A stretch of DNA of 64,000 nt from Squalus acanthias (lineage: Eukaryota): NCBI GenBank assembly GCA_030390025.1, contig CM059432.1, positions 52,516,001 through 52,580,000 of the forward strand, read 5' to 3'. Position 1 is the stretch's first letter. Every line of letters starts with the position of its first letter. The notes beneath the pieces are model-generated. The model made no database searches. It had not been told where the DNA came from and saw only the letters and a program-made list of their open reading frames with translations. Both the position numbers and the translations under genes were made by a program. Positions 3,462-64,000 of the stretch are shown here, piece by piece.

Positions 3462-3896
3462 GAGGAGGAGTGCCTCATGGTGTGTTTCCTGAACAAAGTG
3501 GTAACACTGATGGACTAACAGAAAGCTGTGCACGCTGGGATGGCAAGCATGAGGCATCTCAGCCCGCACGCGACTCTTTACTAAGTTGTGATGCTGTGCT
3601 TAACAGACACTCGCTGCCCACTGGCTATGATAATTTGCCATGCACAGAACCAGATACACCAAAGGAGGTAAATGCAGAGCGGACAAGCAAGTCTAAACTC
3701 AGAAGTCCAAAGGTACAAGACATACACGAGGAGGGTCCAAAGATACAAGATAAGCATGAGAAGGGCCCAAAAGTACAAGATATGCACGAGGAGGGCCCAA
3801 AGATACAAGATAAACATGAGAAAGGTTCTAAGGTACAAGATAAACATGAGAAGGGCCCTAAAGTACAAGATAAGCACGAGAAGAAGGATAACCTAG
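3462..3896 (+). CDS. MYOM1: Myomesin-1 EH-segment cassette exon (435 nt, phase 1-1) with 6 decapeptide repeats
   Basis: Acceptor ...tttaactctag|GAGGAGGAGTG and donor CTAG|gtgaga. The translation GGGVPHGVFPEQSGNTDGLTES..KHEASQPARDSLL..RHSLPTGYDNLPCTE resembles the mammalian EH segment as recalled (GGGVSPDVCP..GGLTAS..VHEASPP..DALL..PSLPSSSQNLGQTE). It lies directly before the My7 exon. Confidence 0.88.
3707..3886 (+). repeat. Coding 30-bp tandem repeat x6 (P/S)K(V/I)QD(K/I/M)HE(E/K)(G/K)
   Basis: Units read directly: PKVQDIHEEG, PKIQDKHEKG, PKVQDMHEEG, PKIQDKHEKG, SKVQDKHEKG, PKVQDKHEKK. Confidence 0.97.
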
Positions 3897-4552
3897 GTGA
3901 GAAAACAGGGAAACAATATTAAAGTTAAACAGATAAAGAGATGCAATCATATTCTGAGAAGAACTGATCTGCTCTCAGTAAATGTGATTGATGCACTTGA
4001 TTCATTGTTAAGGAGGTTTGATGAATGATAACAAAAACTATTTGCACTTTATCATCTCTCACATCCAAGGATGTCTCCAAACACTTTACGAGGGGCGAGA
4101 AGCACACTGAGCAGGAGGTGGGAGTACATTGGAGGCAGAACCAAAACATGGTTTAAGAAATCAGCTTTAAGGGGACTTTGGAAGGAAGATGGAGAGCCAT
4201 ATCAGTGAACTGTTTTCGGAGAGAATTCCGCGGAGCAAGGGTCTAGTAGCAGAAAGATTGGACTCAAATGGTCAAATAGAACATGAGCAGTAACCTAAAT
4301 TCAGAGGAGTGGGGACTATGGGGGAAATATACAGCTGGAGAAAGCCATGAAAAAATGTGAAAATGAGACAAGGACTTTGACATTCAGGGATGGGGGCCAG
4401 TGGAGCTTAGGAAAGAAAGGAGTAAAATCGTAATGTGCTCATAGCTGTTTTGTTGGAAATGAGCTTTGTGTGTATTGATTACACACTCAGTCTCATGAGT
4501 TGAGAATAGACCAGTTTAACCAGAAACACAGTTGAACAGGTTATCACAGAAT

Positions 4553-9446: not shown

Positions 9447-9844
9447 GTAGGTGAAACAAGGCTTACTTCCTGATCATGTTTTTAGAAGTTGTAAGGGAGA
9501 ACTTTCAGTTCAATATACTTCTCAAATGTCTATCTGAAAATAATGTAGGAATAAATATATCTATCACTTGTACTGAAATAACTTTGATTTTGTTCCCCAC
9601 CATTTCGGGTCTCCATTCCTCCAGAGTCACCCATTTGCATCAGTTATGCAGGGGGTGCTCCCTGCATCCTGGAGCAACACATATTCATTTCAAAGGCAAT
9701 ACATTGCCACTGGATACTGGTGCATAATCAGCAGGCCACGTGCATCTACAGGGTCGAGCAGCATGATGTTGGAAATTGTTTGGAATCTGGCTGTATAGAA
9801 TTAAACGGATTTAAGCTTTACCGTAACAATATGTCAATCAATGT

Positions 9845-10302
9845 GAAAGAGTAAATTAAAATGCTGGAAATACTCAGCGGGTCAGGCAGCATCTGTAGAA
9901 AGAGAAACAGAGTTAACGTTTCAGGTCGATGACCCTTCGTCAGAACTGGAAGATGTTAGACATGAACAGATTTTAAGCAAATACAGAGCCAGGGAAAGCG
10001 AGGCAGAAAAGAACAAAAGGGAAAGGTCTGTGATCAGGTGGAGGGATTACAAGGAGGTGATAATGGGACAAGTATAGTGAAAAAAGATGGGTCCAGAGGA
10101 GGTGTTAATGGTTACACAAAAATAGCAGAGCAGGGGAGAAACATGGAAAATCTGGAAAGCGAAGAGGGTTGCCATGGCCCGGGACCTGAAACATTAACTC
10201 TGTTTCTCTCTCTACAGATGCTGCCTGACCTGATGAATATTTCCAGCATTTTCTGCTTTTATTTATGATTTCCAGCATCCACAGTATTTTGCTTTTGTTT
10301 TA
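9845..10302. mobile_element. Non-autonomous Penelope-derived element with inverted arms and a hammerhead motif
   Basis: The arm AAAATGCTGGAAATACTCAGC...GTTAACGTTTCAGG and its reverse complement are flanked by ATGT(C/T)AATCAATGT direct repeats (9831-9844, 10303-10316). The arm is similar to the PLE terminus at 63575-63665. Confidence 0.75.
9911..9947 (-). ncRNA. Minimal type I hammerhead ribozyme motif
   Basis: Reverse complement: AGUU-CUGACGA-A-GGGUC-AUC-GACCU-GAAA-CG-UU-AACU (stem I, core, stem II, palindromic ACGU stem III). Confidence 0.75.
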
Positions 10303-10369
10303 ATGTTAATCAATGTATCTGGTGTACTGTCTTCCTCTAATTCTTGATCTTGCTACTTACTTACTACAG

Positions 10370-28384: not shown

Positions 28385-30169
28385 GTAAAAACAATAATTC
28401 TTACATGTGGTTTAGTTTTCATAGAACATTATTCTAAAAAAACAGTTAATGCTTAAATGTTTAGAGGGCAGCTGGGTATCTTGGCCTGAATAGAAAGATG
28501 GTAGTAGTTTAAAAAAAATAATAATTTGGTTGTAAATTTCCACGTAAAAGTGTTCATGACAACACTAAGAACACTGAGGCAGGGAATTTTCCTCTTTAGT
28601 GGGGACAGAAAATTGCATGGGCATCGGTTTTGCCTGATCCCTCTCCCATTTCTGCGCCAGATGCATTTTCTGCCAGATGTGTCCATCCAAATATGGGTGG
28701 GCACATTTAAATGAGGCAACAGTAAGATCATGCGTCACATTTTGTTATTATGCCCTTAGCAATGCTGGAAGCTAGTAATCCTTGTATATAACAGGTATTT
28801 AGTATTGCTATTGGAGGCACAACAACAAATATGGTGTAAATAACCAAAAGATGATAATAAATGTAATGTGGGGCAACGGATTGGCAGTTCTGCAGTATTT
28901 CCCCCATCTACTATGTGTGTTACCACCTCAAAGAATTGTATGAGATTTATCAAGCACAATCGTCCCTTTTGAAATCCGTGCTGGCTACTTTTAACTATTT
29001 TCTCTATCGAGATTCATGGTAATTTCATCCTTAATTAAAGACTCTAAAAATTTCCCTACCACGGATGTTTAGGCTTCCTTTAAAAAAAATAGGTGTTACG
29101 ATGGCCACCCTCCAGTCCTCTGGCCCATATCCACACTCAATAGAACCCTAAAATAGAATTTCTGGGGTCTCAGCAATTTCCTCCCTCATCTCCCTCAAAA
29201 TCGTAGGACTTTGGCCCTAATCTAAAATTTTCCTTTTATCCATGATAATATTGCTCATCTGCACCTTTAAGCTGCTGCATGCCCCGTCCCCTCCAACGGC
29301 AATCATTTCCCACACCAACCCCACCCCACCCCGCCGCGTCCCCATGGCGAGCCCCAAACATAGGCTAAAACACTAGGCGCGCACCCAAAAATTTCAAAGA
29401 GGCGGAATCCTAGAAATAAGGTCAGTGATGGGGTAAACATCCAGGTGCAAAGCCCACAACTCCAACTTAATGCCAGTGATCCTGCCAAGAGGAAAATCTA
29501 TGCTTCAAAGCATGGGATAACACCGTTTTGAAGTGTAGAACACTATGGAGTTTCAGCAGCTTCAGTAGTTCTACCTCAAGTAGCAGGATGCCTGTGAGTC
29601 TGCGTTTGTAGTTAGTCAGTGGATCAAATTTACCATGCTTCAGGGAAGTGCCCATTAGTCCCCACAAGTACCTAGAGCACAGGAAATTTGAATCTGCTGA
29701 TTTAACTGATAATAAGGCTTCATGTTTGCAGTTTTGCATGGTCCATCACCTGATTACTCTGAGTGGAGTGTCCAAGGTTCGGGATTTTGATGCGCAATGT
29801 ACTCCAGATCCAGGACGTCCAACCTTTAGCTTCAGTAAACAATGGGGTGCTCTACATTTTGGTTATGATTGTGAGGACAACTCCAATCCCCCTGTTGGAG
29901 CCATCTATATGAAGTATGAACTCCTGGGCAGAAACAGAACCTGTGCACAAGCATCCTACAGCTGTTTGAAAGCATGCTCATTGCTTTGCAACTAGGTCAC
30001 CTGATTTAGTGGCTGTTTACTTGTGAGGTCTATTAACAGCAAGGTTTTGTTGTTATATCCATGTGAAGTTTTATTAATAGCCTGCAATTCTAAAAAAAAA
30101 TTGATAACACAGGAGGGAAAATCAGTTCCTATTAACTATCCACTGACCATGATAAAAAGTGTCCAACAG

Positions 30170-30206
30170 AGTTAACGTTTCAGGTCGATGACCTTTCATC
30201 AGAACT
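30170..30206 (-). ncRNA. Minimal type I hammerhead ribozyme motif
   Basis: Reverse complement: AGUU-CUGAUGA-A-AGGUC-AUC-GACCU-GAAA-CG-UU-AACU. Confidence 0.75.
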
Positions 30207-30240
30207 GGAAAAAGTTTTGTACAATCATACCTTTTGTATG

Positions 30241-30989
30241 GGGCTAGAAATTCCCCTCGAGCCCCGTTTGGGGCGCTAAATCAGAAAAGCTGAAAAAATG
30301 AGTGCCAGGCGCTAACTTCTTCCGGCCTTTCTAAAATTTCCACTTTTTGCTCCAAGAGGGAAGTGGAGCGCTAAATCAAGCACTCCACTTTCTTTTTGGA
30401 GTGCAAGAGTGGGGAAAGTTCGTGACACGGGGCGCACCCTGGGCAATGTGCTCAGCAGCGCCACACACTGGGCTGCGTGGTGCTGACGCGTTGCAGGGGC
30501 TCTTCCCTGAATTAAAGGGAAGGGCCCCATGCTGCGAACTCTGCAGTTTGTTTTTTTAACTTACCTGCAGCACCAGGGAGCGGGCGTGCCGCGCGATCAC
30601 GGCACGGACCCTGCGCCCGGAGCAAAAAAAAACATTTTTCAAAAAAGCCAACATTTTTTTCAGGGCAGCCGGCCACCTCACCTTTATCTTCCGCCCCGCT
30701 AGCGGCCGGCCGCCCTGCTCACGTTCCCTGCAGCAGTCGCTGCCATTGCCCGGCGCTGCTGCAGGGGGCGAAGGGGAATTTTTCTGCCGGCGCGCTACCG
30801 GGTCAATGCTCCCGGAGATGATGTCATGATCTCCGGGCGCATGAGATCGGGGTGCAACCCGGTAGCGCCGCTGCTAACCTCTTGTGGAATTTGGCGGGAG
30901 GCACAGTCAGCGCCACGGCCAGGCGAAAAGGCCTTTGCGCCCCGTTAACGCCCCCCATGGGAGGCGCAAAGGAGGGGAATTTCTCCCTC
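30241..30989. mobile_element. PIF/Harbinger-like MITE, family A copy 3
   Basis: TIRs GGGCTAGAAATTCCCCTC / GAGGGGAATTTCTCCCTC. Sits between two inverted Penelope-derived arms. Confidence 0.75.
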
Positions 30990-31240
30990 TTAATCTCTCC
31001 TGTCTTCCAACCTATCACAGACCTTCCCTTTTATTCTTTCCTCCCCTCCCCCCTTTCCCTGCCTCTGCACTTGCTAAAAATCTGTTACATCTCTAACTTT
31101 TTCCAGTTCTGACGAAAGGTCATCGACCTGAAACGTTAACTCTGTTTCTCTCTCCACAGAAGCTGCCTGACCTGCTGAGTATTTCCAGCATTTTCTGTTT
31201 TTATTTCAGATGTCCAGCATCTGCAGTTGTTTGCTTTTGT
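30990..31240 (+). mobile_element. Penelope-derived terminal repeat arm
   Basis: Reverse complement of the 9856-9960 arm, ending GCATCTGCAGTTGTTTGCTTTTGT. Confidence 0.75.
31105..31141 (+). ncRNA. Minimal type I hammerhead ribozyme motif on the MYOM1 sense strand
   Basis: AGUU-CUGACGA-A-AGGUC-AUC-GACCU-GAAA-CG-UU-AACU. Confidence 0.78.
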
Positions 31241-31637
31241 ATAAAAAGTGTGCATATGCATTGGATCTTGGGTAAGGATGGGACCAGGCTTGGCTGTGAT
31301 GCTCTCCATTGTTTAATAACCTGCTGACAGTCAGGCCACAAAATTGCATTAGCCATGATCCTAACATTCAAGCTGGGACTATGTCCACCAGAAGCCTGCA
31401 GCGCTGACCTAGTCGGAGTATGCGGGGTCAGTGGGAGGTCCTGTAATATAAGTATGGCAGGCACACTTGCTACTAAGGCTGCATCTTGGCCACCTGCCAG
31501 CCAACACTGGCCAGGAAGTCTGGCACCTGCTACCATCCTTCCGCCCCCACCTGCCCCGCCCCCCCCCCATGCCAAAAAAAGTGGGCCATTAAAAGCAATT
31601 ACAAAATGAATTACCTTTGTTCAAGAGTTCAGGCCAC

Positions 31638-42867: not shown

Positions 42868-42890
42868 ACAGGCTGCAATTGCCGAACGAA
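42868..42890 (+). CDS. MYOM1: Myomesin-1 23-nt micro-exon, My12-My13 helix
   Basis: aaacag|ACAGGCTGCAATTGCCGAACGAA|gtgagt; (K)QAAIAER(N). Its phases fit both neighbouring exons. Confidence 0.94.
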
Positions 42891-43444
42891 GTGAGTATTA
42901 CGTTCTCAGATGTTGTATAAATATATTAATATTTTTATGATAAGTTAAATTGGAGTTTTAATAGATGGATTGCTGAGATAACTGGCATAGTTGTACTTAA
43001 AATTGTAATTCTTTTATGAGGGTATAAATTCATTTTTTTTTCTCAAAACACCACAATTTTGCTGGGCCATACATAGGTGCGTAGGGACAGGAGGAGGACA
43101 TTCAGCCCCTTGAGCCTGTTCCACCATTCAAATAGACCATTTCAATTACATATCAGCAGCTCTGCAATTCCTTTCCAAGGTACCCACTCGGGGGCATGAG
43201 AATGTCCTGTGATTGACTCACCCTTCAATTTTTCACAATCCCAGGTTGAGAAAGCACCTAATTCCCAACTGGGCTCTCCCCAAAGTGACACAGTTGAGAG
43301 CGGGAATCCTCCACTGTCTGGTGCTGACCACACTGGGTTACTGTGGCACTCATAACTGTACCATTTCAGTATCAGGAGATTCGCACTTGGAGACGTGCCT
43401 TCATGTCATAATGCCTAAGAGAATTTGATGTTTCTTTCTGTTAG

Positions 43445-43500
43445 ATCGTGCTCGTGTTATCGGAGGTTTGCCTGATGTTGTTACAATCCAGGAAGGAAAG
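43445..43500 (+). CDS. MYOM1: Myomesin-1 exon, start of Ig My13
   Basis: tgttag|ATCGT ... GGAAAG|gtaaat; NRARVIGGLPDVVTIQEGK. Confidence 0.96.
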
Positions 43501-43506
43501 GTAAAT

Positions 43507-43558
43507 AAAAGCAGAAAATGCTAAAAATACAGCATCTACAGTATTTTGCTTTTGTTTT
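43507..43558. mobile_element. 52-bp collapsed Penelope-derived insert with 14-bp TSD
   Basis: AAGGAAAGGTAAAT at 43493-43506 and 43559-43572. The insert consists of the two outer ends of the 9845-10302 element family. Confidence 0.8.
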
Positions 43559-43922
43559 AAGGAAAGGTAAATGTTGTGGTGCTGCTGGCTGGCAGGTATG
43601 ATGCTGTGTTTCTATATTTTAACTCTGGTCTTTTAGAATAAAATGAAACAAAACAATTTGAGGGCAGAAATTGAGCATTACTAATACAATATCAGACTTC
43701 TTATCATGGTAGACATTGAATCGCTTTAGTTTGTCAATGATCAACAGAAGATCTGTAAGAGCTGATTACAAAAATATCTAATCCCAGTTTAAATGGGTGT
43801 AACCACACACTAAAATAAATAAAATGTTTTTAGAGTTGGAAATAACTACATTTTACTGTGTAATGTCTCTTTTTGGGCTTGTTAAGAAAAATGATTGAAT
43901 TTTTTTTTAAATTTCTTTTTAG

Positions 43923-44207
43923 TCACTTAACCTTACCTGTAATGTCTGGGGAGATCCTGTTCCTGCAGTTTCCTGGCTGAAGAATGACAGGGAACTTGTG
44001 GGAGATGCTCATATGATACTGAAGTTTGAATCGGCAAAATTTGCTTCCTTCACCATCACCGATGTCAGAACCGCAGACTCTGGCAAATACAGCATCCTCG
44101 TGAAAAACAAATACGGCACTGAGACGGGCGACTTTACTGTAAGTGTGTTCATACCTGAGGAAGAAGAAGAGCAAGCTGTACAGGAAAAAGCAGCAAAGAA
44201 AAAGTGA
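43923..44207 (+). CDS. MYOM1: Myomesin-1 last coding exon, Ig My13 (dimerisation domain) to stop
   Basis: tttag|TCACTTAAC; SLNLTCNVWGDPVPAVSWLKNDRELVGDAHMILKFESAKFASFTITDVRTADSGKYSILVKNKYGTETGDFTVSVFIPEEEEEQAVQEKAAKKK*. The VSVFIPEEE ending is MYOM1-like. Confidence 0.96.
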   Translation, partial: SLNLTCNVWGDPVPAVSWLKNDRELVGDAHMILKFESAKFASFTITDVRTADSGKYSILVKNKYGTETGDFTVSVFIPEEEEEQAVQEKAAKKK

Positions 44208-45215
44208 GGCAATTGTATTGAGGAAGATAAGAGAAAGCAAACAAGCTCAGGCTAACATATATTATCAACAGTGTGTAAGTTTTGATGTGGAGGATAGTTT
44301 ACTGTTACTTGAAGAATGGTGAGACTAGAGGAATGATTTTCAAGCAGCAGTTTTAAAGACTTTCATTGGCTCTACTAAACTAGTCACTGAGTGCATCTGA
44401 AGCATTGAGTTAGAGAAGTAGAATTCCTATAGATAAGTTGTTAGCCAATTGATTTTGTTTTGTGTCCCAAATTTCAATGTGAACACCAAATGATGTCGAT
44501 GCTGTAATGAATAAAATCCCATAGCAATACACTAATAAATGGTGCACATATCCTTCACACTTACCTCCACCTTGTTCCACTGTGTCTTCTTTCGAGGAAT
44601 GTTGTCACTTTTTTTCACCACTTCTTTCTAGTTCGTCAGCTTCCATGTTGTATTTAAAGTTTCAGTGTCCCTTGCCCAGCTTAACTTTATCCATTTAAAT
44701 GAATACTCCTACACTGCCAGGCCCATACTGGAGTGAATCTTGTATGGTTGCCATTCAAGGGTGAGGTCTGTACTTCAACCTTTTTTGTAGTACTATCATG
44801 CAGTGGGCTCTGTCTCGCGTGTCTCCAGACAACACCAGTTTGATGAGTTGAAGTCACTACTCTACCATCTTTGGTGTAGTCCTTTGTGATTGGATTTGTA
44901 AGTTCTGCAGTATGTTGCCATGCTGGGGCTCCAGACATTGAATTAGTTTCTGGAGACAGCTTACTGAGTGACTCTGGATAACTTTAAAAAACACCCAGAG
45001 CTAGACTACTGCAACAAAATGTACATAACTATTACAAGAAGAACAACTTCTGCAAGCCACTGATAAAGATTCAAATATGTTAATTGCTTCCAGAATTCAG
45101 TAATAGATCAATACCAATGCCCAAAAGAGACACTGTAATTTTAACATGTTCAACATGGAGCAGCAAGTAGCTCGAACTCACATGGGTTAACTCTTGTTTG
45201 TCACTGGTAATTCAT

Positions 45216-63298: not shown

Positions 63299-63335
63299 TC
63301 ACAAGCTTTCGGAGCGCTGCTCCTTCGTCAGGTGA
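63299..63335 (-). ncRNA. Minimal type I hammerhead ribozyme motif in PLE terminal repeat
   Basis: Reverse complement: UCAC-CUGACGA-A-GGAGC-AGC-GCUCC-GAAA-GC-UU-GUGA (palindromic AGCU stem III). Confidence 0.8.
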
Positions 63336-63667: not shown

Positions 63668-64000
63668 TTACATGTAGCGTGACATGAACCCAAGATCCCG
63701 GTTGAGGCCGTCCTCATGGGTGCGGAACTTGGCTATCAGTTTCTGCTCGATGATTTTGCGTTGTCGTGTGTCTCGAAGGCCGCCTTGGAGAACGCTTACC
63801 CGCAGATCGGAGGCTGAATGTCCTTGACTGCTGAAGTGTTCCCCGACTGGGAGGGAACACTCCTGCCTGGCGATTGTTGCGCGGTGTCCGTTCATACATT
63901 GTTGCAGTGTCTGCATGGTCTCGCCGATGTACCATGCTCCGGGGCATCCTTTCCTGCAACGTATGAGGTAGACAACATTGGCCGAGTCACATGAGTATGT
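63668..64000 (-). CDS. Penelope GIY-YIG endonuclease domain (partial, open to window edge)
   Basis: TYSCDSANVVYLIRCRKGCPGAWYIGETMQTLQQCMNGHR...PVGEHFSSQGHS...RKIIEQKLI...GLNRD. Confidence 0.85.
   Translation of the reverse strand, partial: TYSCDSANVVYLIRCRKGCPGAWYIGETMQTLQQCMNGHRATIARQECSLPVGEHFSSQGHSASDLRVSVLQGGLRDTRQRKIIEQKLIAKFRTHEDGLNRDLGFMSRYM

Follow-up and report, generated by a model that had tools for sequence, protein, structure and literature searches.

A short insertion, probably of a Penelope-like element, that duplicated a MYOM1 splice donor in Squalus acanthias

When a mobile element lands across an exon/intron boundary and leaves two identical splice donors behind, it has to be asked which of them the host gene uses, and whether the other gives rise to a protein of its own. 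Insertions near splice sites of NF1 are described as usually disrupting splicing (PMC3219598). The question is raised here by a locus in the window, that is, the whole stretch of 64,000 nucleotides of Squalus acanthias DNA that was analysed, in which a sequence spanning a donor of the myomesin-1 gene is repeated a short distance downstream.

A repeated donor in the myomesin-1 gene

The host gene is the myomesin-1 gene (MYOM1) of a cartilaginous fish. Shark myomesin-1 proteins mapped along the window exon by exon in tblastn searches, including a coding exon of 56 nt on the plus strand (43445–43500; 18/19 identical) with which the immunoglobulin domain My13 begins. This exon ends in AAG/GT and joins in frame, as in shark myomesin-1, to the next exon of the same strand (43923–44207), which encodes the remainder of My13 and a short tail and contains an internal GT donor at 44138/44139. 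The best named matches to the latter exon were shark and ray myomesin-1, and it also matched human My13 (2Y25 residues 240–317, E 3.8e-35).

The sequence AAGGAAAGGTAAAT was found on the plus strand at 43493–43506, across the end of the 56-nt exon, and again at 43559–43572, with 14 of 14 positions identical and a spacing of 66 nt. An earlier note, made from the sequence alone, had reported both this repeat and two identical donors 66 nt apart; both were confirmed, the two donors carrying the same 9-mer and the coordinates being correct. No third copy with at most one mismatch was present in the window, for which 0.11 matches per shuffled window were expected by chance, and when the 1.2 kb around it (43000–44200) were shuffled 3000 times, 4 of the shuffles contained a comparable direct repeat. 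The two copies exactly flank 52 nt of element-derived sequence (43507–43558). The left copy contains the donor in use, AAG/GTAAAT, and the right copy a second donor (43566/43567) that is apparently unused. As the last 4–5 nt of the left copy (AAAT) also match the element, the duplication may be 9–14 nt long; such a match would be expected if that cut end had primed synthesis. Sequence comparison supports the reading of the repeat as a target-site duplication left by insertion of a hammerhead/Penelope-like element (PLE)-type family, as had been proposed, since the insert matches a repeat family whose sibling copies also have 14-nt duplications. No empty orthologous site with a single copy of the repeat was seen: organism H (run X18) carries the insert, and the orthologous pieces listed for X20 (organism I) leave 43204–44288 uncovered.

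A two-part insert from an abundant repeat family

The insert matched the repeat family in two parts, one forward (E 2e-9) and one inverted (E 1e-6). The inverted piece (43502–43530, minus strand) corresponds to 31180–31207 and 10238–10265 of the window, and the forward piece (43530–43560, plus strand) to 10273–10303 (30/31) and 31215–31240, with 8 nt of the family missing between the two. The forward piece is the extreme 3' end of the family, and the inverted piece begins 36–41 nt upstream of that end; in the sibling copy, the inverted arm starts at 10260–10265 and the forward arm ends near 10301, with a tail of 30–40 nt on one arm only. What had been described as a 52-bp family remnant therefore keeps its length and its homology, but it cannot be called a simple remnant: the first half is inverted and the second half is the 3' tail.

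Two sibling insertions were identified in the window, at 9831–10316 and 30152–31254, both with an inverted arm, a forward arm bearing the tail and a 14-nt duplication (13/14 in each case), the forward arm of the second also containing a hammerhead-like core (31109–31133). An inverted, 5'-truncated copy beside a forward copy is found in the insert and in these two siblings alike. The contig depths over the family tail summed to 25,042 in X18, compared with 13.6 for the single-copy flank, which indicates an abundant family, though depth is not copy number. All three sibling cores examined showed CTGANGA, one unpaired base, a helix II of 5 bp, GAAA and a palindrome; the insert itself lacks the motif. 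These cores are close to the minimal hammerheads described for PLEs, except that the first pair of helix II is A-U or G-U, against the conserved G-C given in that source (PMC4209133). Rfam returned no hammerhead at the gathering score or at E up to 10.

At the end of the window, on the minus strand, the end of a GIY-YIG-like ORF is directly followed by a relative of the family's 3' region (64000–63538). The frame runs from 64000 to a stop at about 63668–63670, and what follows is a diverged relative of the family (74–82%) and not a direct parent. The frame had an Atlas score of 0.95 to clusters in which 41–42% of the members carry PF01541, and Pfam gave no family match for it. This stretch is probably a PLE that the end of the window cuts off, with any telomerase-like reverse transcriptase lying beyond that end. 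A decayed hammerhead-like core also lies there, after the ORF end, and another hammerhead-like core, which belongs to a different sequence subfamily, was noticed at 63331–63307 (minus strand). Inverted 5'-truncated copies, a one-sided tail of 30–40 nt and short duplications are features attributed to PLEs (PMC8557442, PMC3846280). The assignment of the insert to a hammerhead/PLE-derived family, already made in the earlier note, is supported by the two-part homology, the hammerhead-like sibling cores and the GIY-YIG-like ORF beside a relative. Hammerhead repeats of sharks and rays are mentioned briefly in a preprint (10.64898/2026.07.22.740005).

As an inverted piece joined to a 3' tail is the usual layout of PLE and twin-priming products, the insert was probably born short, as a minimal PLE insertion. 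That a longer insertion was trimmed to 52 nt by a later internal deletion, selected or not, is rather doubtful. The siblings are 0.5–1.1 kb long, a short CAGCA motif occurs in both arms close to the junction, and inverted repeats are prone to deletion. However, the arms do not meet cleanly at this motif, 2 nt being missing, the insert has the same length in organism H, and heavy 5' truncation is presented as usual in PLEs (PMC8557442). With a longer insert, moreover, the decoy donor would lie farther from the exon, which would make the direction of selection ambiguous. No evidence was found for the former suggestion that the insert had shrunk under selection, as both of its ends are natural family ends, in the layout of an inversion product.

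The contigs of four of the 22 listed runs were compared: X1 and X2 (organism A), X18 (organism H) and X20 (organism I). Organism H is about 3% diverged, and record 15 of X18 spans 43108–44600; it shows 40 differences and 3 gap letters, the gaps lying away from the site. The insert is ungapped in this organism, so that the insertion predates the split and its length has been kept. Within the repeat pile (about 43502–43560), where differences of organism H are visible only at 1% of depth or more, A>G was listed for X18 at 43523 and 43524 with a distance to end of 255, that of X1 and X20 being 7–9 there. Because a distance of 255 is possible only for the long X18 contig, organism H appears to carry TGG at 43522–43524, as the sibling copies do, and the TAA of the window would be derived; with TGG, the reading frame would continue 12 codons further, to 43558–43560. 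The two adjacent G>A changes at 43523–43524 relative to the siblings (and apparently to organism H) create both a stop and a branch-point-like heptamer. The differences of organism H from the window over 43108–44600 were skewed, with 17 C>T and 9 G>A among the 43 places listed.

Use of the two donors

X1 and X2 belong to one study and consist of contigs that are guessed to be RNA. Both showed the joints 42890 to 43445 and 43500 to 43923, with GT..AG ends and depths of 15.9 and 8.9, and their listed pieces had no differences from the window over the 43445 and 43923 exons. A 124-nt piece of X2 (depth 2) covers 43531–43654 without differences; organism A therefore has the forward half of the insert, and the piece reads through the second donor unspliced. 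Of the two junctions that the earlier note had set against each other, 43500 to 43923 and 43566 to 43923, only the former was seen in these contigs, and neither the latter joint nor a loose end of that kind was present among the 24 listed of 278. As contigs drop rare variants and cannot measure minor isoforms, they show the main splice form and not the absence of a minor one. The upstream donor still splices, which agrees with the proposal that the duplication rescued a gene hit at a splice site.

In human F7 intron 7, the most upstream of a series of identical donors is reported to be used alone (PMC1557585), whereas in model substrates two strong donors at least 45 nt apart gave almost wholly downstream splicing (PMC3413131). 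From the latter report, some use of the downstream donor would be a fair prior expectation. With identical donors 66 nt apart, the locus offers a natural test case at a point where these systems disagree.

If the distal donor were used, VNKSRKC would be appended before the TAA at 43522–43524, 42 nt before 43566, and most of My13, the domain that forms the antiparallel dimer of myomesin (PMC8900313), would be removed; the earlier note was right in both respects. It had further envisaged a possible lineage-specific, non-dimerising myomesin isoform, noting that stops so near the last junction often escape nonsense-mediated decay (NMD). That the distal donor is used in some tissue, the transcript escapes NMD and a non-dimerising myomesin without My13 has a role of its own is, in our view, very unlikely. 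The identical 9-mers of the donors and the downstream preference of the model substrates speak for it, and for a transcript with the short tail the distance of 42 nt falls inside the 50–55 nt rule as given in PMC1854916. Against it, the assembled transcript takes the upstream donor in both X1 and X2, where 43500 to 43923 is the sole junction listed, the downstream donor is predicted to be less accessible, and organism H, apparently without the TAA, does not share the peptide, so that the C-terminus would differ between close relatives, though My13 would be lost either way. None of 121 proteins compared had the read-through residues after EGK, but the search had used the last exon as query and would have missed proteins that lack it. 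The argument for NMD escape also fails for transcripts that use the donor at 44138, which have later junctions. In 8 of 127 homologs (six named sharks and rays) the sequence continues, directly behind GDFT, into a different and long tail, and the window has the intact donor 44138/44139 at this very point; in transcripts that use it, the 43923 exon is not the last one and the stop would be exposed to NMD. These tails are those of database protein models whose downstream exons lie outside the window, and a tblastn search of the window with them gave no credible match. The homologs concerned (P0025, P0026, P0051, P0052, P0081, P0117, P0122 and P0126) have a conserved tail of about 110 residues where the short tail and the last part of My13 would otherwise stand. 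If an isoform with changed My13 behaviour is looked for, the 44138 alternative tail may be the better candidate. A functional myomesin without My13 would, if true, matter for M-band mechanics; nothing here points to one.

The same letters could also be removed or used in other ways, which can hardly be credited: 43501–43566 (66 nt) might be spliced out as a nested mini-intron that regenerates the ancestral donor, or the AG at 43560–43561 might define a microexon of 5 nt (43562–43566), replacing the 56-nt exon in frame with a product 17 codons shorter. A mini-intron would fit the AG/GT duplication proposed as a route of intron gain (PMC3443670), and it would have GT..AG ends, a U-rich pyrimidine tract and a branch-point-like TGCTAAA at 43519–43525. 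However, there is no match to yUnAy, the heptamer needs the AA that is apparently missing from organism H, and just 24 nt separate the donor from the candidate branch A, which is too close. The microexon keeps the frame, but the upstream joint listed is 42890 to 43445.

According to the predicted fold, the tail of the element pairs with the second copy of the repeat and the next 13 bases of the intron, in an RNA hairpin (43530–43585, plus strand) that would bury the downstream donor. It is possible, though improbable, that the decoy silences itself in this manner: proximity would favour the downstream donor, the pairing of the tail would hide it, and the complementarity may have guided the insertion. 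The predicted hairpin has an energy of -19 kcal/mol (z -4.22, 0/200 shuffles, in a window chosen after the fold had been seen), the tail-target duplex one of -21.0, which was matched by 10 of 18,278 sampled windows, family copies included, and by 2 of 5000 shuffles, and the opening energy at 37 C was 7.8–8.1 at the downstream donor against 2.4–3.3 at the upstream one. On the other hand, the letters of organism H gave a downstream opening energy of 2.3–8.8, depending on the settings, tail and target fail to pair at either sibling (9564 and 1206 of 18,278; z +1.0 and -1.3), two of the 13 other MYOM1 GT donors had opening energies of 7.4–7.5, and 4 of the 22 plus-strand AGGTAA sites, this one included, reached at least 6.8. 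Pairing of tail and target as a rule of the family was rejected, being absent at the two siblings. The predicted hairpin may be due to chance, to a survivor effect or to a trace of target choice. That the insertion neutralised itself, its tail being complementary to the site, so that the dangerous donor copy was hidden at once and the pairing may even have chosen the site, is a speculative reading to which we give little weight. Were it true, a loosened hairpin would switch on a myomesin without My13; and if the hairpin were causal, it would illustrate a way in which a gene can withstand an insertion at an essential splice site.

A proposed course of the insertion and its parallels

The reading that we prefer, and hold to be quite probable, is that of a PLE insertion with a 14-nt stagger after which the upstream donor is used, the protein is normal, the decoy is nearly silent and no functional truncated isoform is made. 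An endonuclease-bearing PLE would have cut the target across the exon/intron boundary, at positions -8 and +6. One cut end would have served as primer for a copy of the 3' tail of the element, about 30 nt long, and the other, ending in AAAT, would have primed internally, 36–41 nt upstream on the element RNA, giving about 29 nt in inverted orientation; as the layout suggests, the two pieces would then have been joined and the stagger filled in. Such a course would yield the arrangement observed, in which the exon and positions +1 to +6 are restored upstream and an identical decoy donor lies 66 nt downstream. The upstream donor is the one used in the organism for which joints were seen, and the protein would be normal. 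The insertion, present in both the window and organism H, would have been fixed before their split. Most likely the decoy is used little or not at all, since the AU-rich insert reads as intron, possibly with help from the predicted hairpin. Extended pairing between the duplication and the priming site was considered as well and was not special: among 6 AT-T sites of one sibling the priming site ranked second, and among 4 of the other it was the weakest.

This course has parallels in PLEs. A purified PLE protein is reported to cut and extend both strands, and to initiate at two RNA sites that bound the tail (PMC11167929). Like the PLE insertions described (PMC8557442, PMC3846280, PMC11167929), the present one has an inverted piece 36–41 nt before the 3' end, a forward tail and a duplication, with a hammerhead-like core in the siblings and a GIY-YIG-like ORF beside a relative; unlike them, it is just 52 nt long and lacks both hammerhead and ORF. 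The duplications in the Adineta examples given are of 8–10 nt, against 14 nt here, and initiation in vitro is described at non-homologous sites, whereas target and primer share microhomology here. The locus is also reminiscent of twin priming by LINE-1, which produces oppositely oriented fragments with a small internal deletion (PMC2837659), a flanking duplication and microhomology at the 5' junction. It differs in that the insert has no poly(A) and is not L1, and in that the sibling at 9831–10316 has overlapping arms, which would need more than one pass over the template.

As regards the splice site, the closest parallel is that of merle in dogs, where a retroelement, a SINE, lies at an exon/intron boundary of PMEL and its 15-bp duplication includes the splice site (PMC7349775); that case, however, concerns an acceptor, is polymorphic and has a demonstrated effect on splicing, whereas none was seen here. 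The F7 minisatellite resembles the locus in its identical donors in series, the most upstream of which is used, but it consists of 37-bp tandem repeats without a transposon, whose copies share their whole context (PMC1557585). Intron gain at AG/GT likewise involves an insert flanked by AGGT at either end, which creates GT...AG (PMC3443670), but in the present case an intron boundary already existed at the site, and a stretch of 66 nt is probably too small for splicing by itself. The literature searched, in which subscription papers were mostly out of reach, held no report of this locus or of a shark MYOM1 case. The locus is a real and tolerated stump, probably of a PLE, that duplicated a MYOM1 donor, mostly an ordinary insertion, and it provides a clean, small example of the geometry of PLE insertion, with two priming sites and a 14-nt stagger.

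Some further features of the gene were observed. In the intron preceding the 56-nt exon, a 59-nt fragment of a very high-copy repeat was found at 43082–43140, with a summed depth above 1e5 in the large runs, and a 23-nt MYOM1 exon (42868–42890) was present in both of the spliced contigs (X1 and X2). A MYOM1 exon with a 10-residue repeat (3470–3898) was present in the homolog P0002 and absent from P0025 and P0026; it is probably an alternative elastic insert, which we take to be akin to the EH segment.
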